Positions 3,462-39,216 are shown, numbered from the stretch's first letter. The stretch: 64,000 bases of DNA from an uncultured Gammaproteobacteria bacterium (GCA_963848305.1 CAWKDC010000001.1:22490-86489), one strand, 5' to 3'. A program made the numbers and translations. The notes: generated by a model not told the origin, from the sequence alone.

Positions 3462-5350
3462 ATGAATCTGGCCTTGGGCGCTACGCATCTTGAAGGAAAC
3501 AACTGCCGATTTGTTCTTTGGGCCCCTCTGGCAGAACTTGTTCAAGTGCGTATTCTCGACGAACGAGACTCCGTCTCTCTGACTGGAGCCGTCTCACGGG
3601 GAAGCCACAAGGGCGGCCGATTAATTCCGCTGCAGAGAACGGACAGAGGTTATCACGAAGGGATCGTCGAGGGAATCCGGCCCGGAACACGGTACATTTA
3701 TTGCCTTGACGGCAATAAGGATCGGCCCGACCCCGCCTCGAGGTTTCAACCAGAAGGCGTCCACGGAGCTTCCCAAGTTGTTGACCCGCGAGCATTTCAA
3801 TGGAACGATGCACGCTGGCGCGGGCTCTCACTCGAAGACTACATCATCTATGAAATCCATGTGGGGACCTACAGTAGCGAGGGAACGTTCGACGCCATTA
3901 TTCCCTATCTTGATGAAATAAAAGGATTGGGAGTTACGGCGCTTGAGTTGATGCCTGTGGCCCAGTTCCCAGGCGATCGCAATTGGGGTTACGACGGAGT
4001 TTATCCCTTTGCCGTCCAGAATAGTTATGGTGGCCCTGAGGGGTTGCGGAGGCTGGTTGAAGCCTGCCACGAGCACGAACTGGCTGTCGTGCTCGATGTG
4101 GTCTACAACCACTTGGGCCCGGAAGGGAATTACCTCGGCGACTTTGGACCCTATTTCACAGACCGATACCGGTCCCTTTGGGGTCAAGCCCTAAACTTCG
4201 ACGGCCCGGAAAGTGACGAAGTCGTCCGATTTTTCATTGAGAATGCTCTCTACTGGCTACGGGATTTTCACATCGATGCTCTTCGCTTAGACGCCATTCA
4301 TGGGATTGTGGATTGCAATGCTCAACCGTTCCTCTCGTTTACTGGCCCAGGCAGTGCACGATTTCGCCAAACAATCAGGCCGCAAGATTTATCTGATCGC
4401 GGAAAGCGACCTCAATGACGTGCGCTACATCCAGCCCACTCAATCGGGCGGATACGGGTTAGATGCCCAATGGAGTGATGACTTTCACCATGCTGTACAT
4501 ACCCTGCTCACCGGGGAAAAGTCCGGCTACTACCTGGATTTTGGTGGGATCGAGGACCTGGGAAAGGCCTTCGAAGAAGGCTTCGTATATTCCGGCCAGT
4601 TCTCCGCTTATCGGCACCGGCGCCATGGCAATTCCTCTCGTCACATTCCGGCGCGACAGTTCGTGGTTTTCGCCCAGAATCACGATCAGGTTGGCAATCG
4701 GGTATTTGGCGACCGGCTAAGCACCTGGTGTCCTTCGAGGCGTCGAAACTGGCGGCGGGGATGGTGATTCTCTCCCCCTACATTCCCCTGCTGTTCATGG
4801 GGGAGGAATGGGGTGAGACGGCCCCCTTTCAGTATTTCACCAGCCACTCGGACAGCGCCCTGATCGAAGCCGTGCGGCGCGGCCGGCGAGACGAATTTGC
4901 CGACTTTCGCTGGGAGGGCGAACCTCCTGACCCTCAAGCCGAGGCAGACCTTCTTGCGATGCAAACTGGATCACACCCTAAAGCAATCTCAACCCCATCG
5001 AACGCTCCAGGAGTTCTATCAGGAACTGATCAAGCTGCGGAAATCGCTGCGGGCTTTTGCCCGGCTCAGCAAGGAGCAGATGGAAGTGCGCGTCTTCGAG
5101 AGGGAGAAAGCCTTACAGATCCGCCGTTGGTGCGAAGACGATGAAGCGCTCATTTTGGCGAATTTCAGTGCCGAGCCCAGGACCATCCTCATGGCTGGTC
5201 TCAGCGGCAATTGGCACAAGCAGTTGGATTCGGCAGATCGCCGATGGAGGGGGCCAGGGAGCGTCGTTCCTTCGAGCTTCAATTCCACCGGCAGAAGCCT
5301 GTTTAAATCTGTGCCCAAAGTCTTTTATGGTATTTCAAAGGGCGGGGTGA
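3462..5350 (+). CDS. treZ: malto-oligosyltrehalose trehalohydrolase (TreZ, GH13), with at least three apparent frameshifts
   Basis: N-terminal E-set domain [11 protein letters not shown]13 core [24 protein letters not shown]...[16 protein letters not shown]...[10 protein letters not shown]; continues in ORFs 4300.., 4728.., 4897.. in other frames; the exact 3' end is uncertain. Confidence 0.75.
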
Positions 5351-14669: not shown

Positions 14670-14720
14670 CCCTCGTCCCTTGCTACAGAACCAAGCGAAA
14701 CTGGGGTGGGGGTGCCGTTT

Positions 14721-14798
14721 GACGTAGAGGCGGCTTTAGGCCGCCATTTGCCGTGGTTTTACGGTCGCGACATGGCGGCGTAAAGCCGCCTCTACGTC
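14721..14798. repeat. REPIN-like inverted REP pair
   Basis: gacgtagaggcggctttaggccgcc ... 28-bp spacer ... ggcggcgtaaagccgcctctacgtc; it lies between convergent genes. Confidence 0.6.
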
Positions 14799-14813: not shown

Positions 14814-16220
14814 CTAACAGCGGACAATCTTGTCACGATGGTGCGTCACTCGGGCAGTGGCGTTCCGCGTGTCCACCACAAGCGGGCTCTCGGTGACGAC
14901 CAAGTCATAATCCACATTGCTGTGGTCGGTCACGATCAACGCGCAATCGTGCGTGCGAAGCGCTTCCGCGGTCAGCGGGATGGATTCGCAGACCGAAGTC
15001 GTATTTCCGCATCTTCCCCAGGCGCGGAACAAAGGGGTCGTGGTAGTCAACGTGAGCTCCCTGCGCGCCGAGCAATTCAATGATCTTCAATGCGGGCGAT
15101 TCCCGGACGTCATCGATATCCTTCTTATACGCCGCTCCCAGCACCAGCACGCGCGAGCCGTGCAAGGTTTTTCCGCGCTCGCCCAGCGCCGCCGCCACAT
15201 GATTCACGACGTGATGGGGCATGGCCGTATTGATTTCGCCCGCCAACTCAATAAAGCGCGTGGGAAATTCATACTCGCGCGCTTTCCAGGTCAGATAAAA
15301 CGGATCGACGGGAATGCAATGCCCCCCAAGACCCGGCCCCGGATAAAAAGCATTGAACCCGAAAGGCTTGGTTTTCGCCGCGTCGATGACCTCCCAGATA
15401 TCGATGCCCATGCGCATGCACAGAAGCTTGAGCTCATTCACCAGGGCGATGTTCACGGAACGGTAGATGTTCTCCAGAAGCTTCGTCATCTCCGCGGTCC
15501 GGGATGAACTGACCAGTGGGTGCGTTCGAAGATACTCTGATAGAGCGCCTGCGCGGCCAAAGCGCTGGAGGCGTTCACGCCCCCGACGATCTTGGGAACC
15601 TGGCGAGTTTGGAATTGCTTGTTTCCAGGATCCTCGCGCTCCGGGGAAAAGGCCAGGAAGAAGTCCGGTTCCGCCCCCTCGGACGCCGTCACGGTGACGC
15701 CGTCGGTGGTGTAGGGGGAAACGGGACATTTCAGCCCGCCTTCTCCAGAATGGGAAGCATGTCTTCGTCGGTGGTTCCCGGATAGGTCGTACTCTCCAGC
15801 ACGATCAATTGGCCGGGCTGCAAATGCTCGCTCACCAGCTTTGGCGGTATTCAGGACAAAGGAAAGGTCGGGTTCGCGGTGTTTGTCGAGAGGGGTGGGA
15901 ACGCAGATGATGATGGCGTCCATTTCTTTGAGCCGGGTGAAATCGTCGGTGGCCTGAAAACGCTTCTTTTCGACTTCCTCGGCAATGCTGGCAGCAGAGA
16001 TATGATGAATGTAGCTCTCTCCCCGCCGGAGCTTTTCAATCTTGCCGGGGTCGATGTCAAACCCCGTGGTCTGCGAACCCGGCGTGGCGCACAAAAGCCC
16101 AAGGGGCAGCCCCACATAACCCAATCCGATCACTCCCACGCGAGCCGTTCGATCCTGAAGCTTCGCAGACAGGCCAGACACTCGCGGTCCCGGAGTAAAT
16201 GGCCCTTTTCCAGTTCCCAT
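14814..16220 (-). CDS. nucleotide-sugar dehydrogenase (UDP-GlcNAc/ManNAc 6-dehydrogenase family), with two or three frameshifts
   Basis: [17 protein letters not shown] Rossmann motif, [65 protein letters not shown]. Confidence 0.7.
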
Positions 16221-17107: not shown

Positions 17108-17283
17108 AGATCTTCCTCCGAGGATATTAACCGTTGGCCTCGTTTCTGGTAAAGGAGCGGCAAGCGAGAAATGCGCCGTTCCCATCAAGCTTACGGCCGG
17201 TAAAAGGAGGTTCACTCCCCGGCACGAAATCTACTCTGCCTTAAGCCGCAAAGTCAAGTACAGGCGAGTTCACCTCGCCATAT

Positions 17284-17308
17284 GGCGGCGTAGAGCCGCC
17301 TCTACGTC
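17284..17308. repeat. REP unit (ggcggcgtagagccgcctctacgtc) that served as the insertion target of the MITE-like element
   Basis: Same family as 14774-14798; its 3' 10 bp cctctacgtc is duplicated on the far side of the element. Confidence 0.55.
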
Positions 17309-17514
17309 CAACACAGTTCACTTAGCTGTCATCAGGGATTAAACAAATCTAATTACGTGCGAAGCACCTTGGAGTGCGAGTGGCAGCAGCCACCGCCTTC
17401 CGCCCGAGATTCATACGGGACTCGCACGAATGAAAGGCGGTGGCTGCTGCCACTCGCACTCCAAGGTGCTTCGCACGAGCCCATGTCAAAATGCGCGCTA
17501 AGTGAACAGTGTTG
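17309..17514. mobile_element. 206-bp MITE-like non-autonomous element, copy 1: 17-bp terminal inverted repeats, an internal 42-bp perfect-stem hairpin, a 10-bp target site duplication
   Basis: TIR caacacagttcacttagc / gctaagtgaacagtgttg; TSD cctctacgtc at 17299-17308 and 17515-17524; stem arms 17356-17397 and 17436-17477 are perfectly complementary; a near-identical copy lies at 39011-39216. Confidence 0.7.
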
Positions 17515-24326: not shown

Positions 24327-25670
24327 ATGAAGACCGGAAATCACAAATTTGACCGCGGGACTGCATTAATACTCGCCACGGCCTGCATTGCCATGGCCAT
24401 TTTAGCCACGTCTTGTGGTGGTGGGGCCGGCAGCAGCGCCACCGCTGATACAGCCTCCACAACAGGACTCTCGATAAGTCCCCCTACCGTGACCTTCGGC
24501 AGCCAAGCTGTTGGGACGGCAAGTGCGGCCCAGACCAACACCGTCACGAATGCGGGCAACTCGGCCGTGGGCATTTCCAGCATTGCGCTCGGAGGGACAA
24601 ATCCCAGCGACTTTGCACAATCCACTAACTGCGGCTCCACCGTTGCGGCGGGTGCCAGTTGCACAATCACCGTGACCTTCCAACCGACGGCGACGGGAAC
24701 TCGCAGCGCCGAAGTAACTGTCACCGACAATGTCTCCCACAGCCCCCATAAGGTCAGCGTCAGCGGAACGGGTATGGCGTCTACTGTCACCCTATCTCCC
24801 ACCAGCCTCACTTTCGCCAGCCAAACCGTCGGCGCCGCCAGCGCGGCCCAGACCATCACGCTGAGCAACTCGGGCAACGCGGCCTTAAGTGTGACCAGCA
24901 TCGCGGTCTCCGGCGCCAACGCCAGTGACTTTACAGAAACCAATAATTGCGGATCAAGCGTGGCGGCTGGAGCCAATTGCACGATCAGCGTTACCTTCAA
25001 GCCGGCCGCGGCAGGAGCTCGCACCGCCGCCATCTCCGTTACGGACAACGCTACCGGCGGCCCGCAGAGCGCGGTCCTTTCGGGCACCGGGGGGAGCACT
25101 ACCGCCGCGGCCAGCGTTTCGCCCACCAGCCTGTCTTTTGGGAACGAAGCGGTGGACATGGTCAGCACCTCGCAAGTCGTTACCCTGAGCAACACAGGCA
25201 GCGCGGGCTTGGGCATCTCGAGCATCGCCTTTACGGGTGCTGATGCCGCCGACTTCACGGAGGTTGACACTTGCAGTCCCGCGGTGGCCGCAGGGAGCAC
25301 TTGCACGATCGCAATTTTATTTACACCCGCCGCCAGCGGAACGCGCACGGCTACCTTGAGCATCGCCGACAATGCCACCGGCAGCCCGCAGTCCGTGTCG
25401 CTTTCGGGCTCGGGAACGCACGACGTAATGCTGTCTTGGACCGCCAGTTCGACTCCTGGGGTCATGGGCTATAACGTCTACCGGGGGACGACCTCCGGTG
25501 GAGAGAGTGCGGCACCGCTGAATTCCGCGCCGGTTTGCAATACCACATTTGCGGACGCGAATGTCACGGCAGGAGCGACGTACTACTATCACGTGACGGC
25601 CATAGCTGCGAATGATGTTACGCAGAGCTCGGCCTCGAACGAAACGACTGCAACCGTCCCCACACCTTAA
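24327..25670 (+). CDS. lipoprotein with three choice-of-anchor-D/ASH-like about 100-aa repeats and a C-terminal fibronectin-III-like domain
   Basis: Lipobox ILATSCGGG; repeats LSPTSLTF.SQ.VG.ASAAQT.TLSNSGNAAL...DF...NCGSSVAAGA.CTI.VTF.P...G.R.A..SVTDNA; LSWTASSTPGVMGYNVYRG...YYYHVTA. Confidence 0.7.
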   Translation: MKTGNHKFDRGTALILATACIAMAILATSCGGGAGSSATADTASTTGLSISPPTVTFGSQAVGTASAAQTNTVTNAGNSAVGISSIALGGTNPSDFAQSTNCGSTVAAGASCTITVTFQPTATGTRSAEVTVTDNVSHSPHKVSVSGTGMASTVTLSPTSLTFASQTVGAASAAQTITLSNSGNAALSVTSIAVSGANASDFTETNNCGSSVAAGANCTISVTFKPAAAGARTAAISVTDNATGGPQSAVLSGTGGSTTAAASVSPTSLSFGNEAVDMVSTSQVVTLSNTGSAGLGISSIAFTGADAADFTEVDTCSPAVAAGSTCTIAILFTPAASGTRTATLSIADNATGSPQSVSLSGSGTHDVMLSWTASSTPGVMGYNVYRGTTSGGESAAPLNSAPVCNTTFADANVTAGATYYYHVTAIAANDVTQSSASNETTATVPTP

Positions 25671-25881: not shown

Positions 25882-27438
25882 ATGGGGATGAAAGGTATGA
25901 GCAAAGGACAGAAAGTGGCGATCTTTGACACAACGCTGAGGGATGGCGAGCAAGCGGCTGGGTCGAGGCTCAGCAGCCCCGATAAGCTCACGCTGGCGCG
26001 GCAGTTAGCCCGACTGAAAGTCGACGTCATCGAGGCCGGATATCCCGCTTCTTCGCCCGAAGACTTCGAGGCCGTCAAGCGGATCGCGCAGGAGATTGAC
26101 GGCCCGGTGATCTGCGGTTTGTCGCGTGCCGTGCCCGAGGACATTGAGGCCTGCGGCAAGGCGCTGGCGAGGGCCAAAAGGCCCCGCATCCATACCGGCA
26201 TCGGCGTTTCGGATATTCACATCATGGGGAAATTCCGCGACGAGAAATACGGCAAGACGCTCGGTGAGAAGAAGGTCAAAATGATGCAGATGGCAGTGGA
26301 GGCGGTCAAGCGGGCTCGCAGCCACGCCGATGACGTGGAGTTCTACGCCGAAGACTCCGGCCGCGCCGAGCCGGCGTACCTCTACGAAATCCTCGAGGCC
26401 GCCATTGATGCCGGCGCCACCGTCGTCAACATTCCCGATACCACCGGCTACGCGGTGCCGGAGCAGTACGGAGCACTGATTCGGGGCATTGCCGAGAACG
26501 TCCGCAACATCCAAAGCGCCACCATCAGCGTCCACTGCCATGACGACCTGGGCATGGCGGTTGCCAACTCGCTCGCGGGCATCCGCAACGGCGCCCGCCA
26601 GGTGGAGGGTACCATCAATGGAGTCGGAGAACGGGCGGGCAACGCCGCGCTGGAAGAGATCGTCATGGCCCTCCGCACGCGAGCCGACTTCTTTGGGGTG
26701 TCTACCGGCATCGACACCCGCGAACTGTATCGCACTAGCCGCCTGGTATCCGATCTGCTCGGCACGGTGGTTCCGCCCAATAAAGCCGTGGTGGGCGGAA
26801 ATGCGTTCTCGCACAGCTCGGGAATCCACGTGGATGGATTTCTGAAAGACCGGGAGACTTACGAGATCATGCGCCCGGAGGACGTCGGCCTGGCGCAGAG
26901 CCACGTGGTTTTGACGGCGCGCACCGGACGCGCCGGGTTGCGCGCGCGCCTGGAAAAGCTGGGGCACAAGCTTTCCAAAGAGGATCTGGACGTCATCTAT
27001 CAGCGCTTTCTGGCCGTGGCGGACAAGAAACTCGAGGTTTTCGACGAGGACCTGGTTGCCATCGTGCGCGACGAATTACACCCGGTGCCCGAAGTCTGGC
27101 AGCTCGAATACTTGCACGTTTCCAGCGGTACTTCGGCCATCCCCACCGCCACCCTGCGCTTGCGCGTCCATGGGGACGTGCGGGAGGGGGCCGCGATCGG
27201 AAACGGTCCCGTAGACGCCGTCTATAAAGCGATCACGGCACTGGCGGGAGACTCTGTCCGACTGGTGCGCTACGACATTCACGCCGTGACGGGCGGCACG
27301 GGAGCCATGGGCGAAGTAACCGTGCAGCTCGAAAAAGGGGAGCGGCGGGTCGTGGGGCGGGGCGCATCCACTGACGTGATTGAAGCGAGTGCCAAAGCGT
27401 ACCTGGACGGGCTCAATCGATTGGCGAGCCTCGGCTAG
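25882..27438 (+). CDS. leuA: 2-isopropylmalate synthase (or citramalate synthase; LeuA/CimA family), intact
   Basis: VAIFDTTLRDGEQAAG, HCHDDLGMAVANSLAGI, GTINGVGERAGNAALEE, C-terminal regulatory domain. Confidence 0.8.
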   Translation: MGMKGMSKGQKVAIFDTTLRDGEQAAGSRLSSPDKLTLARQLARLKVDVIEAGYPASSPEDFEAVKRIAQEIDGPVICGLSRAVPEDIEACGKALARAKRPRIHTGIGVSDIHIMGKFRDEKYGKTLGEKKVKMMQMAVEAVKRARSHADDVEFYAEDSGRAEPAYLYEILEAAIDAGATVVNIPDTTGYAVPEQYGALIRGIAENVRNIQSATISVHCHDDLGMAVANSLAGIRNGARQVEGTINGVGERAGNAALEEIVMALRTRADFFGVSTGIDTRELYRTSRLVSDLLGTVVPPNKAVVGGNAFSHSSGIHVDGFLKDRETYEIMRPEDVGLAQSHVVLTARTGRAGLRARLEKLGHKLSKEDLDVIYQRFLAVADKKLEVFDEDLVAIVRDELHPVPEVWQLEYLHVSSGTSAIPTATLRLRVHGDVREGAAIGNGPVDAVYKAITALAGDSVRLVRYDIHAVTGGTGAMGEVTVQLEKGERRVVGRGASTDVIEASAKAYLDGLNRLASLG

Positions 27439-27656
27439 AAGGCCGGACGTCGGGGTTTCCATGGCGCCGTCCTCGGGTCAAGCGAAATCATACGAAAGGG
27501 GAAACTTCCGGAAACGAAGGCTACCCGACAGTTATCGGTGAACGCTGGGCGACTACCGAGGAGTTATTTCCCCGAACCCCGTATCCGCGGAGTTTGCATA
27601 CTTGCTGGTAGTAAGGGCGTTTTCCCACGCGGAATCCGCATTTAGGGTAGGTGCTG

Positions 27657-27998
27657 CTATCCGGCGAGCCTGCGGAAGGTAGGGTGTTCGCTCCCCGCTG
27701 TGGTCGCCGCTGGAGTCTTGCGGTAGACGAAAACGATTTTGCCGGACTCGGGGACGGCGTCACGGTCGGGCTGAACGCCGCGGTCGTTCACCAGGTGGGC
27801 GAACACGGCTTGGGCGGCGTCGGTGGTGTAGGCTTCGCGATAGGTTAACTCATCGCCCAGATCGGCCTCCCGGTGCCGCTGGAAGAACGGCCCGCGCGCA
27901 TCTTTGGCCGTCCCTACGCACCATTCCTCGCACGCACCCCCGTGTTTCCGAATGTGCCCTTCCATGTCTTCAATAATTTCCTGACGGTTGATAGGCAT
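27657..27998 (-). CDS. hypothetical small protein (113 aa)
   Basis: An intact ORF with reasonable codon usage; unknown family. Confidence 0.35.
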   Translation of the reverse strand: MPINRQEIIEDMEGHIRKHGGACEEWCVGTAKDARGPFFQRHREADLGDELTYREAYTTDAAQAVFAHLVNDRGVQPDRDAVPESGKIVFVYRKTPAATTAGSEHPTFRRLAG

Positions 27999-28157
27999 AA
28001 TCGTAGCCTTTCTCTTCAGTTTTAAATCTTGAATCTGCCCCTCGCCCCTTGTCAGTCGTTACTCGCCACTAGTTCTTGGGCGTTTCACATTTGCAAACAT
28101 GTGAACGCTCGTCGTATTGGGAGCCGCGGAGTAGTTCTGAGATAGGCGCAACGCGCT

Positions 28158-28398
28158 ACCCGCCTTCTCCGAAAAAAAATTCCGGCAGAAATTGGACTAC
28201 ATGCACAAGAACCCGGTGACGCGCGGCCTGGTGATCTCTCCCGGTGATTGGCCGTGGTCAAGCTGGAGGTTCTACTATTCACAGGATGCATCGATTCTCC
28301 GCATGGACCGGATGCGTTGAGTCCAACTTTCGAGAAGTCCCTTCGGGAGATCGCAGACTTCAAAGAGCCGGAGTCTGCCAGCCCCCGTGTCTTGCAGC
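28158..28398 (+). mobile_element. partial copy (about 240 bp, 3' end only) of the IS200/RAYT element found at 30.8-31.47 kb
   Basis: About 90% identical to 31227-31466, including the A8 tract, the DWPWSSWRFYY coding segment and the subterminal hairpin gcagact...agtctgc. Confidence 0.75.
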
Positions 28399-28540
28399 AT
28401 TTCGACATTGAAGGTTACTAAGCAAGATTATGTTATGATCCCAGGAACCATCGGCTTGGCACGCAGACACACATCAAGAGCAATGCGCCAGCCGGCCGGA
28501 AGCCCTGGAGCTGCATATTAGTGCCACAGGGCGGGAGAGG

Positions 28541-29074
28541 TCATTTCGTGATCGTCACGTCACTAACGGACTTGAGGATCAGTCGAGTCTGATACAACGT
28601 ACTGGGCGTGAACCCATAGCCTTTCCTGACGACGGTCTTGCCAGTCTTATCCGTCACTGTCAATTTGTCTGGACCGTCGAACCGTCCGACGAGCGTCGCG
28701 AATACTCGGCCTTCTGGAGGCTTAGAGGACGGGCCGATCTGCAGTCCCCACCCGTACTTCGAAAGCGCTTCGTCCAACTTCTTGAGATTCTCATCTTTCA
28801 ATAGACTGAATTCAGGGCGGTCCGAGTCTCGCACGAGGTCCGGGGAATAGAGCGCGACGGCCGCCCCTTTGTGGTCGCACTCCGCCAGGAGGACAGAAAT
28901 CTCGAATGCCGCGTAGACTTGCGTGCGAATGCGAACCATTTTCCCGCTAAAGGCCGCCGGGTTCCGAACGAGCTCGCACACCGTGGTGTCAATGGGGTTC
29001 ATAGCCGCCCTGTCGGGCAACGCACAAATTCCGAGCGCCACGATCGCCAATAGAATCGTTCTCAATGTGGACAT
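28541..29074 (-). CDS. signal-peptide protein immediately downstream of the RHS toxin domain; candidate cognate immunity protein
   Basis: MSTLRTILLAIVALGICALPDRAA signal; 177 aa; an 18-bp gap to the RHS stop on the same strand. Confidence 0.45.
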   Translation of the reverse strand: MSTLRTILLAIVALGICALPDRAAMNPIDTTVCELVRNPAAFSGKMVRIRTQVYAAFEISVLLAECDHKGAAVALYSPDLVRDSDRPEFSLLKDENLKKLDEALSKYGWGLQIGPSSKPPEGRVFATLVGRFDGPDKLTVTDKTGKTVVRKGYGFTPSTLYQTRLILKSVSDVTITK

Positions 29075-29091
29075 GTGATCTCCCTTCCCGC

Positions 29092-30879
29092 CTACTGCTG
29101 CTCCCAGGGGTCATGATAGGGCAATGGGTCAACAAAGATCTTGCCGGGATTCAGACGAGGGTACGTACCCATGATCAGATTCGATGTGCCAGCATCGTTG
29201 AAACCTCGGCCACTCGTAAAGATAGTGTAGCCGCCAGCCGAAAGACCGGACAGGCCAAGCCCTTGTGCCACCCAAGCGGACGTTTCATACCCGCGATACT
29301 CGAACGAGAAGTCCGGCAGCGGGGCCGTCGAACTCCTTGGATCGAGATTGTCCATCACGTGGGTTCCCTCGTGGCCAGCATTTATCGCCATGATGGTTTC
29401 GTTTGGATTCTTGCTCATGTCGAACGTAACTGCTGAGCCGACCGTTGCAGCAGCACCTAGCCCGCGCAGGTCGCCGGTCGTGACGGTCACTCCGTTATCA
29501 TCGCCTGCCTTGCCATAGGTCTTCAGAACTGCATCGAGCCTCGCACGCTCCTCGCTGCCCTTTCCGAAGCTGTTTCTCGCCGCTTTTATGTCGTCCAACG
29601 AATCCTTAAACTCTTTCTTGAAAGCCTTGAAATCAGCGTTACACTGTTTGTCAGATTTCTCGCAAGGGTTCTTGAAATCGTAGAGCCCGGTGGGATCGAC
29701 GCGAGTGGTGGGATTATTCCGGACATAAGCATACATATTCCAGGTCTGGGGGTCGCTGGGGTCGGCAGCGGCCAGGCCTGCCGGGTCGGGGGTGAGCCAG
29801 CGGCCGGCCAGGTCGTCATAGACCCGGTGCGGGGCCAATTTAAAATCGCCATCCCCCTCCTGAAACGCCGCCCACTCCCACTCCCATAAATTACCGGCCG
29901 TTTGCCACAACTGACCCCAGGGGTACCACAGTAAGTCCTCGGTCCAGTTCCCCAGATGGTTGGTGTCCTGGGTTGCGGAACCGAGAAAGTTGGGGTGCTG
30001 AAGATAGGTCTCGTTGTTGTCACGGGAATATGCTGCGATTTTCCGCCCCCCCGCTCGTACCTGGTCCACCCACAAGCTGCTGCCGTCGGCGTTCCCCAGC
30101 CAATCACCATTGGGAGCGAACAATGCGGACATGTTGGTCCACGGCACGGCATAGTAGACCTCTTGGCCGAAGGCATTATAAACTGCGCTGGAATTGGTTT
30201 CCCGCCCCTCGCCATCCCAGGAGAAGCTATTCGTGCCGTCACTGGTCAGATTCCCCGCGGCGTCGTAGCTGAAGCCGTCAATGCGATTCGGGTAATTGTT
30301 GTAAGTCAATACCGGGCAAGGGCCGTTCGTAGACCCGTTCATCAAGCAGGTCATGTTGCCGTAGGCGTCATAGCCAAAGGCGAGGTTATACGTGCTGTTG
30401 CCGCTCGCCTGCGCGCAAGCCAGGCGATTCACGCCGTCATAGACATACAAGGCCGAGTGGCTCATCGTGCTGTTCACCGCGTCCGTGAAAGTATAACCAA
30501 TCACGTCGCCGTTGTTGCCGCTCCCGGACGCGGACACGGGGCAGCCGGGCGGCGTACTGCCGCCGGGCAAAGAGTAATTATACCCCAGTGTATAGTACGC
30601 TCCGGGGTTGCCGCTGGTGCCCAACTGAATCTGGGTCGGCTGCATCCGGTTATTGTAGGAGTAGGTTTCCTGGCTGTTCGTGCACCCGGAACCCGCGCAG
30701 CCGTTGGTGAGACCGCTTAGCGCCCCCCAGGGAGTGTAGGCCGGCTGGCGCTCAGACACCCGTTCTTTGGTGTCTGCGATTCCCGAAGGGACGTTCTCTT
30801 CCGGCCCCGCACCGTCGAGAGTATACTCTTCTGCGCCATGCCCTTCTACCACCGCGTTTACAGTCCCGGTGAACTGCAA
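29092..30879 (-). CDS. RHS/YD-repeat protein C-terminal fragment with a variable C-terminal toxin domain carrying an HExxH motif (N-terminus lost at the IS junction)
   Basis: YD repeats (YVYDGVNRL, FGYDAYGNMT, FSYDAAGNLTSDG); RHS core end RWLTPDPAGL...NMYAYVRNNPTTRVDPTGL; about 210-aa tail with AINAGHEGTHVMD. Confidence 0.75.
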   Translation of the reverse strand: MQFTGTVNAVVEGHGAEEYTLDGAGPEENVPSGIADTKERVSERQPAYTPWGALSGLTNGCAGSGCTNSQETYSYNNRMQPTQIQLGTSGNPGAYYTLGYNYSLPGGSTPPGCPVSASGSGNNGDVIGYTFTDAVNSTMSHSALYVYDGVNRLACAQASGNSTYNLAFGYDAYGNMTCLMNGSTNGPCPVLTYNNYPNRIDGFSYDAAGNLTSDGTNSFSWDGEGRETNSSAVYNAFGQEVYYAVPWTNMSALFAPNGDWLGNADGSSLWVDQVRAGGRKIAAYSRDNNETYLQHPNFLGSATQDTNHLGNWTEDLLWYPWGQLWQTAGNLWEWEWAAFQEGDGDFKLAPHRVYDDLAGRWLTPDPAGLAAADPSDPQTWNMYAYVRNNPTTRVDPTGLYDFKNPCEKSDKQCNADFKAFKKEFKDSLDDIKAARNSFGKGSEERARLDAVLKTYGKAGDDNGVTVTTGDLRGLGAAATVGSAVTFDMSKNPNETIMAINAGHEGTHVMDNLDPRSSTAPLPDFSFEYRGYETSAWVAQGLGLSGLSAGGYTIFTSGRGFNDAGTSNLIMGTYPRLNPGKIFVDPLPYHDPWEQQ

Positions 30880-31466
30880 TTCATCACCACCAGCACCTAT
30901 CGCCGCACGCCCCTTTTCCTCTCGGATCGCTTTCGGCGCTGCTTTGTCCAGAGGCTGGAGGAGGTGCGGCAGGAATTACATTTCCTGCTCGTCGGCTGGG
31001 TTCTGATGCCCGAGCATTTTCATATGCTGATCAAGCCCGAGCCCGCCGAAACCACTCCCCTGATTATGAAGGGGCTCAAGGAGGAATCGGCCAAGCGCAT
31101 CATCAGAACACTTCGGGAAAACCTTCGGTATCCTTGGTGCCGGAAGACGCTCGCCAGGCTGCGGCTGCCCTCCACGGTTCACGATGAATCACACTACCGC
31201 CTCTGGCAGCGCCGCTTTTACCCCTTCAATGTCTTCTCCGAAAAAAAATTCCAGCAGAAATTGGACTACATGCACAACAACCCGGTGACGCGCGGGCTGG
31301 TGAGTTCCCCCGGCGACTGGCCGTGGTCAAGCTGGAGGTTCTACTATTTGCAGGATGCGTCAATTCTCCGCATGGATCGGATGCGCTGAGCTCAACTTAC
31401 CAGAAGTCCCTTCGGGAGATCGCAGACTCCAAAGAGCCGAAGTCTGCGCCAGCCCCGTGTCTGGAA
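30800..31466 (+). mobile_element. IS200/IS605-like element carrying a REP-associated tyrosine transposase (left boundary approximate)
   Basis: RAYT gene plus a subterminal hairpin cgcagactccaaagagccgaagtctgcg; the 3' 240 bp is duplicated at 28158-28398. Confidence 0.65.
30838..31389 (+). CDS. REP-associated tyrosine transposase (RAYT, IS200-like Y1 HuH transposase)
   Basis: HuH motif MPEHFHMLIKP; YRLWQRRFY; DYMHNNPVTRGLVSSPGDWPWSSWRFY, which matches the RAYT signature. Confidence 0.8.
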   Translation: MPFYHRVYSPGELQFITTSTYRRTPLFLSDRFRRCFVQRLEEVRQELHFLLVGWVLMPEHFHMLIKPEPAETTPLIMKGLKEESAKRIIRTLRENLRYPWCRKTLARLRLPSTVHDESHYRLWQRRFYPFNVFSEKKFQQKLDYMHNNPVTRGLVSSPGDWPWSSWRFYYLQDASILRMDRMR

Positions 31467-31728
31467 ATGGTTGAGTGATCTTTACAATCGTGCCTGAGAG
31501 AGCCGGCGCGGCGATCTCCGCGGCAATCTTCCCGGCTGCCAGCCTACCCATCAAGTCCTGACCGAGGCTCACGAACAACGAAAATGGAATAAGGAATTTG
31601 ACCGAGGCGCTAAGCCAAAGCCAGTAGCGGACTTGGGCGCGATTCTTGCGGAAGGCGAGCGTCAGCAGCCCCACCACAACCGCAAACACCGTTGATTGCC
31701 ACAAATGGTTCGTCACCTCAGCGATCAT
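31360..31728 (-). pseudogene. blaR1/mecR1-family sensor (peptidase M56) N-terminal remnant, truncated by the IS
   Basis: MIAEVTNHLWQSTVFAVVVGLLTLAFRKNRAQVRYWLWLSASVKFLIPF is a typical BlaR1 N-terminus; the reading frame runs into IS-derived sequence after about 87 aa. Confidence 0.6.
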
Positions 31729-32125
31729 TTCGATTCATGCTTCCTTTCTGCTTGTGTTCGAGATCAAGCTTCTTGATGGTCTTCTCCAACTCTCGAACGT
31801 CATCAAGGGTGAGCTTCCCCGCTTCGGCCAACTGCGCCATCATGGGTTGAGCCTGCCCTCCGAAGAAACTCAGAATGTCGTCAAGGAGCCGGCGGCGTGC
31901 CACGTCCCGGGGCACCGTCGGTTCGAAAATATGAGCGTTGCCGATCTTCCGGACTCGGCGCACTGCCTTCTTGCCCTCCAGCCGGTACACCGTGGTCTGG
32001 ATGGTGGTGTATGCCGGCCGAGGCTCCGGAAACGACTCCTGGATCTCCCGAATGGCTGCCTTTCCATGGGTCCATAGGACTTCGAGGATTTGGAGTTCGA
32101 GCTTGGTCAATTTTGGTCGGGCCAT
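31718..32125 (-). CDS. BlaI/MecI/CopY-family transcriptional repressor
   Basis: MARPKLTKLELQILEVLWTHGKAAIREIQE...YTTIQTTVYRLEGKKAV winged-helix N-terminus plus a C-terminal dimerisation helix; the internal start at 32125 is preferred (GAAGG RBS). Confidence 0.7.
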   Translation of the reverse strand: MARPKLTKLELQILEVLWTHGKAAIREIQESFPEPRPAYTTIQTTVYRLEGKKAVRRVRKIGNAHIFEPTVPRDVARRRLLDDILSFFGGQAQPMMAQLAEAGKLTLDDVRELEKTIKKLDLEHKQKGSMNRNDR

Positions 32126-32150
32126 GTGCCTTCTACTATTCTCCATCTAA

Positions 32151-32168
32151 AATTACTACAATATAGTA
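32151..32168. promoter_or_regulatory. perfect 18-bp dyad TACTACAATATAGTAGTA upstream of blaI; candidate BlaI operator
   Basis: An inverted repeat sits 26-43 bp upstream of the preferred blaI start; BlaI/MecI operators are TACA/TGTA-type dyads. Confidence 0.5.
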
Positions 32169-32988
32169 GTATGTCAAGAAAAATATTTTGCGACCTTGGA
32201 GGGCGATTGGTCGCCCGCTCGAAGCTGATCGACACTCCCGCTGATTACTCCTGCGTGGTCGCCCAGCGTCTACCGATCCATGGAAATCTGGGCGGATCAC
32301 GGCCACTCGGAAGCTATTCCGGTCAAGTCCCCTTCGAGGAGGTTTGTCCTGGCAGAGCACTCGCCGGATTAATCGCGAGTAACGGCGTACGGTAGAGCGG
32401 TCGCCCAGTTCCCGCCTCGCGCAGTCTGCACCTATTATCGGCAATACGCCGCCAGCCGGCTGTAGCGTCATCTAAGCCGTTAACCTAGGGATTGGAAGCG
32501 CCCCAAAGCCCGCGATGCGGGCGTGATCATGTCGCCATGGGAAAAACGTAGGGGAACATGTTCTGAGCCCCGGAGGGGGCGACATCGGGCCCCGTTGGTG
32601 GGGAATCAAGCACGGTCGGCGGCAGGTTTTGGCCAGAAGAATTCACCGATGCCGCCCCTACGGGGCTGACGAGGCCCGCATGGCATCAGCATCCCACGGC
32701 TGGCTAGCCGTGGGCTACAGGATGTCGCCACTGCCGCGGCTTTGGATCAGACCACTTCCCTTGGGTTGACGCTTATTGGCCGGTTGGCCTGGGCATTGTT
32801 AGGACGCCCATTTGGGGCTGGGAAGTACGAACGTCTATGTCGAATTCACTCCATCAAATTAGGACATCACCGGATGCCCCAATAATTTGACAATCGCGGA
32901 AACTGGCTTTATCAATAATAGGGCTGGAATTTCAGGCAAGTCCTTCCGATAAAAGAAAATCCAGACTGACAATAGAGCGGAGGTTTTT

Positions 32989-39010: not shown

Positions 39011-39216
39011 CAAAACTGTTCACCTAGCTGTCGTCAGGGATTAAACGAATCTAGTTACGTGCGAAGCACCTTGGAGTGCGTGTGGCAGCAGCCACCGCCT
39101 TTCATTCGTGCGAGTTCCGTATGAATCTCGGGCGGAAGGCGGTGGCTGCTGCCACACGCACTCCAAGGTGCTTCGCACGAGCCCATGTCAAAATGCGCGC
39201 TAAGTGAAAAGTGTTG
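39011..39216. mobile_element. MITE-like element copy 2 (206 bp), inserted at the stop codon of the acyltransferase gene
   Basis: Co-linear with 17309-17514 apart from a few substitutions and an inverted 38-nt loop; TSD gggctaggcgg / gggctagccgg at 39000-39010 and 39217-39227. Confidence 0.7.

Follow-up and report, generated by a model that had tools for sequence, protein, structure and literature searches.

How did a toxin gene that lacks its beginning come to lie end to end with a protease/sensor gene that lacks most of its length, with one transposase element between them? The question is raised by a 64,000-nucleotide stretch of DNA from an uncultured Gammaproteobacteria bacterium (GCA_963848305.1, CAWKDC010000001.1:22490-86489), here called the window, with positions counted from its first letter. 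Between leuA and a blaI/blaR1-like gene pair, the window carries a 5'-truncated RHS gene, a candidate immunity gene, and two copies of an element that encodes a transposase of the RAYT class. We lean, with modest confidence, towards reading this locus as a headless, decayed RHS orphan toxin/immunity array that was colonised by Terriglobia RAYT-class elements, with a deletion accounting for its junction with blaR1. The first-pass annotation proposed insertion followed by deletion, or capture of a cassette by an insertion sequence (IS), and in this general form the proposal is supported by a haplotype with an intact blaR1, by gene ends that lie flush with the element, and by four similar loci elsewhere. 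The course of events proposed below is tentative, and the transposase is a presumed participant.

Direct repeats around the RHS cassette

Comparison of the window with itself reveals the two element copies in direct orientation. Positions 28164-28378 match 31233-31447 at 91% without gaps, allowing one gap extends the match to 28164-28392 and 31233-31462 (90.0% identity), and the repeat as a whole (28164-28398 versus 31233-31466, about 90-91%) is present in the 64 kb as this pair alone. Searching the window for one of its 27-mers gives exactly two occurrences, against none predicted from shuffled sequences, and the terminal hairpin GCAGACT..AGTCTGC likewise occurs exactly twice. The complete copy, E1, occupies 30740-31456 on the plus strand, and the other, P, is a 5'-truncated copy of 235 bp at 28164-28398 on the same strand. 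The bracketing of the cassette by direct repeats was correctly recognised at first pass, as was the completeness of the larger copy; the extents given then (a 240-bp copy at 28158-28398 and a full element at about 30800-31466) are replaced by 28164-28398 and 30740-31456/9.

The bracketed RHS gene (29092-30738, minus strand) encodes a shell/core of about 350 amino acids ending in RVDPTGL, followed by a C-terminal toxin domain of about 195 amino acids with an HEGTH motif. Its open reading frame (ORF), called at 595 amino acids (29092-30879, minus strand), passes the TIGR03696 Rhs_assc_core model (46 bits; cut-off 32.5) and reads through the left end of E1. Homologues align only from residue 48 onward (YTPWGAL, nucleotide ~30738), and residues 1-47 are the translated left end of the element, which bears out the earlier claim that the element replaces the RHS N-terminus. 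Upstream of this point the homologues share the sequence ...WTHPAGFTITN...LAQNIT, which is missing from the window, and three longer homologues (P0002, P0004, and P0062) have 275-495 additional N-terminal residues. The 64-kb window holds no other RHS ORF, and so no full-length rhs gene lies upstream.

A 177-amino acid ORF (28541-29074, minus strand) starts 18 nucleotides past the RHS stop codon, and its N-terminus has a hydrophobic, signal-peptide-like stretch. At another locus, L045, this ORF and the toxin end are conserved together, with 66.7% identity at the amino acid level and 73% nucleotide identity across window positions 29532-28563, and the ORF is a candidate immunity gene. Searches of Pfam, NCBIfam, and PDB returned no credible family for the toxin domain, for this ORF, or for ORF113, a 113-amino acid ORF (27657-27998, minus strand) located between leuA and P.

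The RAYT-class element

E1 is approximately 717 bp long (30740-31456/9) and consists of a left inverted repeat (30740-30798), a transposase coding sequence (CDS; 30838-31389, 183 amino acids), and a right inverted repeat (31402-31456). The ends pair over about 50-55 nucleotides, 30743-30797 with 31402-31454, and each holds two hairpins. More than 20 loci with unrelated surroundings match the window from 30738/30743 to 31454/31455 as a single block at 72-96% identity, and because the same boundaries recur in all of these contexts, E1 is a discrete unit.

The transposase passes the NCBIfam model NF047646 REP_Tyr_transpos (120.2 bits; cut-off 80) and the broad Pfam Y1_Tnp model (37.3; cut-off 23) and scores below the IS200 equivalog NF033573 (32.6 bits; cut-off 55), so that of the original label "IS200/RAYT" only the second half stands. 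Its best relative of solved structure is Escherichia coli TnpA_REP (PDB 4ER8, 1.7e-9), which aligns over the HUH and Tyr regions. The HFH motif lies within PEHFHMLIKP, and the sequence YMHNNP corresponds to the class-2 signature Y-x-x-x-N-P defined in PMC6006769. A genome scan with the transposase protein found 80 loci, all in Terriglobia or Acidobacteriota metagenome-assembled genomes (MAGs), several of which contain 3-5 paralogues. Exact-protein look-ups of the window's RAYT and LeuA gave no match.

The element ends read GCNGGCTGGCGCAGAC, and each combines a short hairpin, GTCCC-TTC-GGGAC, with a 10-bp hairpin, CGCAGACnnn...nnnGTCTGCG. The long stem covaries, with 28 double-change cells over 3 apical pairs among 33 distinct ends, a score reached by 0 of 500 shuffles. 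The hairpin foot is (G/C)ATCGCAGAC in 33 of 33 aligned ends and GT[AG]G in none. In its 64 kb, the window has no more than two terminal hairpins that are intact, plus the left end and a single degenerate remnant. Internally deleted, 5'-truncated, or solo-end derivatives are found beside full copies at L016, L021, L024, L032, L071, L078, L033, L086, and L118. Taken together, these sequence features indicate that the E1 family pairs a RAYT-type protein with insertion-sequence-like behaviour.

Three smaller observations concern the ends. The left-end hairpin foot of E1 contains a 2-3-nucleotide insertion (GCGC[TC]AGAC in the window and GCGC[ATC]AGAC in contig L002) that is found in no other family member and may immobilise this copy. 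Just outside the terminus, the bases (C/G)TGTC(T) appear at window positions 31456-31464 and 28398-28406 and in L020, L025, L026, and L029. By inspection, about 6 of about 70 ends have (C/G)TGTC directly after the terminus, the flanks otherwise lacking a clear motif; these bases may belong to a variant terminus or mark a site at which joining is preferred. In one MAG, a left end with at least 34 nucleotides of identical flank is present three times (L031 from 3892, L036 from 3892, and L036 at ~2156), and the two right flanks that can be compared differ, a pattern that suggests duplication of the end along with adjoining DNA.

The short copy P keeps the last 157 nucleotides of the transposase CDS and the right-end hairpins and lacks both the HUH region and the left end. 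P and E1 differ at 14 coding positions, 11 of them third positions of codons, and the differing codons divide into 8 synonymous and 4 non-synonymous. This third-position bias shows that P is the remnant of a separate family member and not a recent duplicate of E1; it diverged under purifying selection as a functional element and was truncated later. The inner break of P is joined directly, at 28163/28164, to an 89-nucleotide non-coding block, module Y (28075-28163). On its other side lies a degenerate solo right-end remnant, CGCAGACAC...TGCGCCAGCCGGCC (28461-28497, plus strand), read from the sequence, whose 10-nucleotide core TGCGCCAGCC matches the family terminus GTCTGCGCCAGCCGGC. The right flank of P was also considered as a degenerate copy of Y and rejected, since local and global alignments were no better than shuffles; only the remnant at 28461-28497 is real.

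Two haplotypes of the blaI/blaR1-like locus

On the far side of E1, the window keeps the first 91 codons of a BlaR1-like gene (31457-31728, minus strand) and an intact BlaI-like repressor gene (31718-32146, minus strand; Pfam Penicillinase_R, 1.8e-24). The ORF that begins like BlaR1 is 122 amino acids long (31360-31728, minus strand), its frame continuing into the element as far as a stop at 31360. Metagenome contig L001 matches the window at 100% over 391 nucleotides (L001 8301-8691) up to position 31456 and then diverges into an intact 612-amino acid gene with Peptidase_M56 and DUF3738/TIGR03435 domains. The BlaI protein of L001 is identical to that of the window, and the same protein is common to L001-L004. 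The intact blaI-blaR1 operon that the first-pass annotation suggested looking for is thus present in L001, and also in L096; the truncation that it described is confirmed by this intact gene, at 91 codons in place of about 87.

The gene is BlaR1-like in part only. As in BlaI/BlaR1 and MecI/MecR1 systems, a Penicillinase_R repressor overlaps the start of an M56 peptidase, but the sensor domain is DUF3738/TIGR03435 and not penicillin-binding, so the earlier name "blaR1" suits the protease domain and not a beta-lactam sensor. The intact gene scores 87.7 bits against the BlaR1 equivalog NF000326 (cut-off 400) and has no penicillin-binding domain. By its domain content, it is one of the many M56 paralogues of Acidobacteria, not a beta-lactam sensor or part of a resistance operon, and therefore no bla gene is expected. 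A palindrome of the form TACTAC-N6-GTAGTA (TACTAC-AATATA-GTAGTA, 32154-32171) lies 8 nucleotides upstream of the blaI start and is a likely BlaI-type operator. With the protease/sensor half of the switch lost, the repressor is presumably locked on.

Two haplotypes can be distinguished: haplotype A has an intact blaR1 and is represented by two metagenome contigs from two samples (L001 and L096), and haplotype B is the arrangement of the window. The samples with the intact gene are those of ERZ25039484 and ERZ25039501. Haplotype A runs blaI, intact blaR1, 110 bp, repeat X, a solo right-end hairpin (h'), module Y, and the right end of an element, which is situated 305 bp downstream of blaR1 with its transposase oriented as in the window. 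Relative to A, haplotype B is missing 1,871 bp (L001 8692-10562), comprising blaR1 codons 92-612 and the 305-bp spacer with X, h', and Y. The missing segment ends flush with the right terminus of the element, with an overlap of 3-4 nucleotides at 31456-31459. Copies of X and Y also occur in the window on the leuA side, X at 27534-27599 and Y immediately before P. Between haplotypes these are 88-89% identical (L001 10368-10424 to window 27599-27543, 89%; L001 10475-10562 to module Y, 87.6%), compared with 95-100% for the flanks, which fits X and Y of the two haplotypes being paralogous copies, as a simple deletion would have it.

Mis-assembly of the repeated element was the explanation that the first-pass annotation set against its own. 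The order of haplotype B across both junctions is found in the window and in ERZ25039528, ERZ25039593, GCA_052916005.1, and GCA_052915985.1, so that contigs of at least four independent assemblies span both junctions in the same order as the window. The two copies, moreover, are only 90% identical over 235 bp. Short-read Logan contigs do break exactly at the repeats (L004 at 31456; L012-L015 at 28337-28341), and the interior of E1 is 5.7% off other assemblies whose flanks are identical, making contamination of the consensus conceivable; the E1 differences are mostly synonymous third-position changes and not errors. A collapsed repeat or a chimeric join at the two copies is accordingly highly improbable.

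A proposed deletion and its alternatives

Under the reading that we favour, the arrangement of haplotype A would be ancestral, and B would have arisen from it by a single 1,871-bp deletion that removed blaR1 codons 92-612, X, the solo hairpin, and Y. The deletion would have ended at the right terminus of the element with 3-4 nucleotides of microhomology, promoted either by transposase cleavage at the right end or by the terminal hairpins. The RHS junction would reflect an older insertion of an element into an rhs gene, and the resulting unit of element, truncated RHS gene (RHS'), immunity gene, and element would later have been moved or shuffled through recombination between element copies. 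A separate deletion would have taken away the 5' part of P and brought the remainder up against Y. This model is preferred because it needs the fewest events, because X and Y are only 88-89% identical between haplotypes and the flanks 95-100%, and because A- and B-type contigs share their closest element allele.

The last of these points comes from comparing element copies. The window is 100% identical to L002, L006, and L007 over 27439-30739 and 99.6-99.8% identical on the blaI side, yet the transposase CDS (30838-31389) differs from theirs at 31-32 sites (94.3% identity), without indels and mostly at synonymous third positions. The closest relatives of the window allele are L016, at an unrelated locus (96.3%), and L001 (96.2%), and the element allele of the B-type contig L002 is closest to that of the A-type contig L096 (97.1%), which is consistent with one element copy being common to both haplotypes. 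The allele pattern indicates in-place gene conversion among element copies, as judged from the aligned sequences; consensus contamination in metagenome assembly is an alternative explanation of the CDS difference to be reckoned with.

Several points weigh against the deletion reading. In both A-type contigs, the left side of the element runs into other mobile DNA or the contig end, and no contig ties the left end of the A-haplotype element to the RHS cassette, P, Y, or ORF113. The left-end hairpins of L001 and the window are only 81.8% identical, and copies at unrelated loci are equally close in the CDS (L016, 96.3%), so identity alone is no proof of orthology. The role of the transposase, moreover, is presumptive. 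In L001 (11170-13069, 13214-14285, and 15791-16429), an IS4-like element with DUF6788 and DDE_Tnp_1 interrupts the RAYT gene, the flanking element segments overlapping by 11 bp, consistent with target duplication, and group II intron fragments and a large serine recombinase follow.

Two ideas about this comparison were set aside. A 3-nucleotide left-foot insertion shared with L001 was considered as proof of orthology and downgraded, as the L001 left end can be aligned in two ways and has a different hairpin type. Circle and inversion models for the reversed X-Y-P order were rejected because no block differs in orientation and the two orders are mirror images instead of rotations of one another.

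The main competitor of the deletion model, possible but doubtful, is integration of a cassette. Here, a unit of one element copy (E2), the immunity gene, RHS', and E1 would have entered blaR1 at codon 91 of an RHS-less locus with the order leuA-X-ORF113-Y-(solo hairpin)-X-blaR1-blaI, in the form of a composite, transposon-like segment or of a circle that recombination between two element copies had made in an RHS array. The rest of blaR1 would have been lost later, through a deletion reaching from within E2 up to the border of Y, and the element of haplotype A would be an independent insertion nearby. This scheme requires only one Y and accounts naturally for the flush junction between the right terminus and blaR1. 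The 8 nucleotides past the terminus are nearly identical for P (GTGTCTTG) and E1 (GTGTCTGG), and the recurrence of (C/G)TGTC at this place in several other copies hints at a preferred joining site. Copies of about 96% identity at unrelated loci also speak for recent mobility. Against these points, integration needs two events more than deletion, and Y is 87.6% identical between haplotypes where true flanks are 95-100%. The insertion in the left foot of E1 (2-3 nucleotides) should impair mobility, the structure as it stands, with no left end on P, falls short of a competent composite, and the closest element allele is common to the B-type L002 and the A-type L096.

Element termini at RHS fragments elsewhere

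At four other loci (L017, L045, L057, and L058), a family member has one terminus flush against an RHS fragment that lacks its 5' part, at differing RHS positions and at either element end. The right end is involved at L017, where the adjoining RHS sequence is ...CTNIQETYAYNNRMQ, and at L045, where it adjoins the toxin end and immunity gene that are related to those of the window. The left end is involved at L057 (RHS residue ~178) and L058 (RHS residue ~263). At L045 and L058, the element stands between an upstream RHS cassette and the next orphan, forming interleaved arrays, and their repeat unit is E-RHS'-immunity-E, which counts in favour of cassette integration as well. By comparison, the E1-RHS'-immunity-P segment of the window looks like an excerpt of such an array.

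The same geometry bears on the view that the elements are bystanders, in which two independent insertions fell into a junk-rich region and blaR1 and RHS were shortened by spontaneous, unrelated deletions in which the element had no part. Other mobile DNA does abound here and in related regions, namely repeats X and Y, IS4-like elements, group II introns, and a serine recombinase, and P and E1 are old paralogues at 90% identity. However, both truncated genes end within about 2 nucleotides of element termini, and the flush arrangement recurs in the four other loci; random deletions would not repeatedly stop at termini, which renders this view improbable.

A more far-reaching idea, for which we see a small chance, is that in Terriglobia the RAYT-class element serves as a boundary and recombination module of RHS orphan arrays. 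Elements would insert into rhs genes and then provide portable homology or transposase-cut ends, by which units of element, RHS', C-terminal toxin, and immunity gene would be rearranged inside arrays and also carried out to loci other than RHS. If true, the element would be a dedicated vehicle for diversifying polymorphic-toxin cassettes. The favoured reading has to accommodate the three RHS orphans examined from the RHS side (P0005, P0014, and P0004), none of which has an adjacent Y1 gene; the association of element and RHS is therefore not universal. Two of these three loci, L117 and L118, have element remnants or a hairpin doublet. At L117, the RHS orphan P0014 begins at 3809, and two family-type hairpins in inverted arrangement (3580-3765; GCAGAG...CTCTGCGCTACC) stand immediately upstream in the manner of a REPIN. 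Should element termini prove to be flush with RHS fragments more often than chance allows, they would offer a route for orphaning and moving toxin/immunity cassettes in soil bacteria.

Relation to known systems

The locus combines known kinds of component: a mobile element of RAYT/TIRYT-like type, an RHS orphan cassette, and an IS-associated deletion. It represents ordinary transposon-driven genome scrambling, documented in unusual detail.

E1 resembles RAYT/TnpA_REP systems (PMC6006769, PMC5581495) in its 183-amino acid HUH protein with YMHNNP, in passing the RAYT equivalog, and in the placement of its gene between inverted hairpins. Solo and doublet hairpins near relatives (L001 h', L033, L086, and L117) also recall the REPtron. 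A typical RAYT has about one gene copy per genome, many dispersed repetitive extragenic palindromes (REPs), and an immobile gene, a norm from which the E1 family departs: its 717-bp unit is found complete in unrelated contexts, with the same boundaries each time, and several MAGs hold 3-5 paralogues. The canonical REP foot GT[AG]G is missing from its hairpins, and only 2-3 hairpin copies are present in the 64-kb window.

E1 is closest to the TIRYT fringe of the RAYT family, described in PMC6006769. A TIRYT is a TnpA_REP homologue that sits between terminal inverted repeats and acts as a transposable unit. Measured against that description, E1 does not have the terminal consensus GGGG[AT][CG]A[CG] (cited in PMC6006769), and its ends hold two conserved hairpins. 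Most TIRYT proteins belong to the long subclass 2.1 with a C-terminal helix-turn-helix, whereas the E1 protein is short and has no extra Pfam domain.

With IS200/IS605 elements such as IS608 and ISDra2, E1 shares a Y1/HUH transposase, structured ends, multiple copies, the lack of an evident target duplication, and the existence of decayed and internally deleted derivatives. It differs in that its ends are inverted copies of each other and not distinct left and right hairpins. Elements of the IS200/IS605 family insert 3' of a specific tetra- or pentanucleotide and transpose by way of single-stranded circles; no conserved tetranucleotide target stands out in the flanks of the E1 family. A composite transposon is also an imperfect match, with P lacking the left end and HUH region and E1 carrying an indel in its left hairpin foot. 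The usual view of RAYTs is of domesticated genes, present in single copy, that do not move as a unit. The E1 family is IS-like: its ends are discrete, a genome may hold several copies, some derivatives are internally deleted, and copies apparently undergo gene conversion in place. It provides a clear Acidobacteria example of the poorly characterised TIRYT-like fringe.

IS-associated Rhs loci include the Rhs elements of E. coli with H-rpt/ISAs1 and the orphans of Salmonella and Serratia. The cassette of the window resembles these orphans in its 5'-truncated rhs gene, which is without the N-terminal delivery region and most of the shell and keeps a partial core with the DPxGL ending, its distinct C-terminal toxin, its adjacent candidate immunity gene, and its location in an IS-associated variable region. 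It differs in lacking a full-length rhs gene upstream within the window, in being bordered by a RAYT-class element and not a DDE-type IS, and in its position between leuA and the blaI/blaR1-like pair.

Neighbouring features and side repeats

The gene leuA (25882-27438, plus strand), encoding 2-isopropylmalate synthase, marks where the variable region meets conserved sequence on the left; its Pfam matches are HMGL-like (2e-85), LeuA_dimer, and HCS_D2. The other side of leuA varies too: the window (24327-25670) and L006 have a 447-amino acid ASH/Ig-repeat protein there, and L002 has a Mrr-type restriction gene (14899-15825) at the same site.

Repeat X, detected in the window as an inverted repeat of 34 nucleotides at 82% identity, flanks the blaI-blaR1 pair of the intact haplotype with copies of about 34-57 nucleotides in inverted orientation. 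In the window, an inverted partial copy found by the repeat search lies upstream of blaI (32244-32277), and the copy at 27534-27599 is a further one between leuA and ORF113. Homologues of ORF113 are present at L018, L019, L046, L065, L117 (8834-9115 and 9734-10072), and L118 (11905-12249). Members of this unannotated small-protein family lie within a few kb of RAYT elements and RHS arrays. ORF113, a candidate for an accessory or orphan immunity role, may have been left behind from an array.

Module Y has copies of 79-82% identity in unrelated contexts (L105 784-864, L106 10682-10769, and L108 5694-5761) and contains an internal imperfect palindrome, GTTTCACATTTGCAAACATGTGAAC. An Rfam search of 27300-32500, module Y included, gave no family match, and a metagenome scan with an 18-mer from Y returned 18 loci, of which only those three were Y-like, with no empty site or new haplotype among them. 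Y may be the end of another mobile element or a regulatory RNA or DNA site. A promoter and terminator scan yielded nothing useful.

Two further repeat families occur in the window. One is a repeat of about 200 bp with two perfect 44-nucleotide inverted arms 34 nucleotides apart, found at 17309-17514 and 39011-39216 and in L001 at 936-1141. Its two window copies lie 21.7 kb apart at 92-98% identity, and it resembles a miniature inverted-repeat transposable element unrelated to the RAYT element. The other is a family of short hairpin repeats (GTTTGACGTAGAGGCGGCTTTA.GCCGCC...), REP-like and present in both orientations, at 341-375, 14717-14757, 14765-14798, and 17272-17312.

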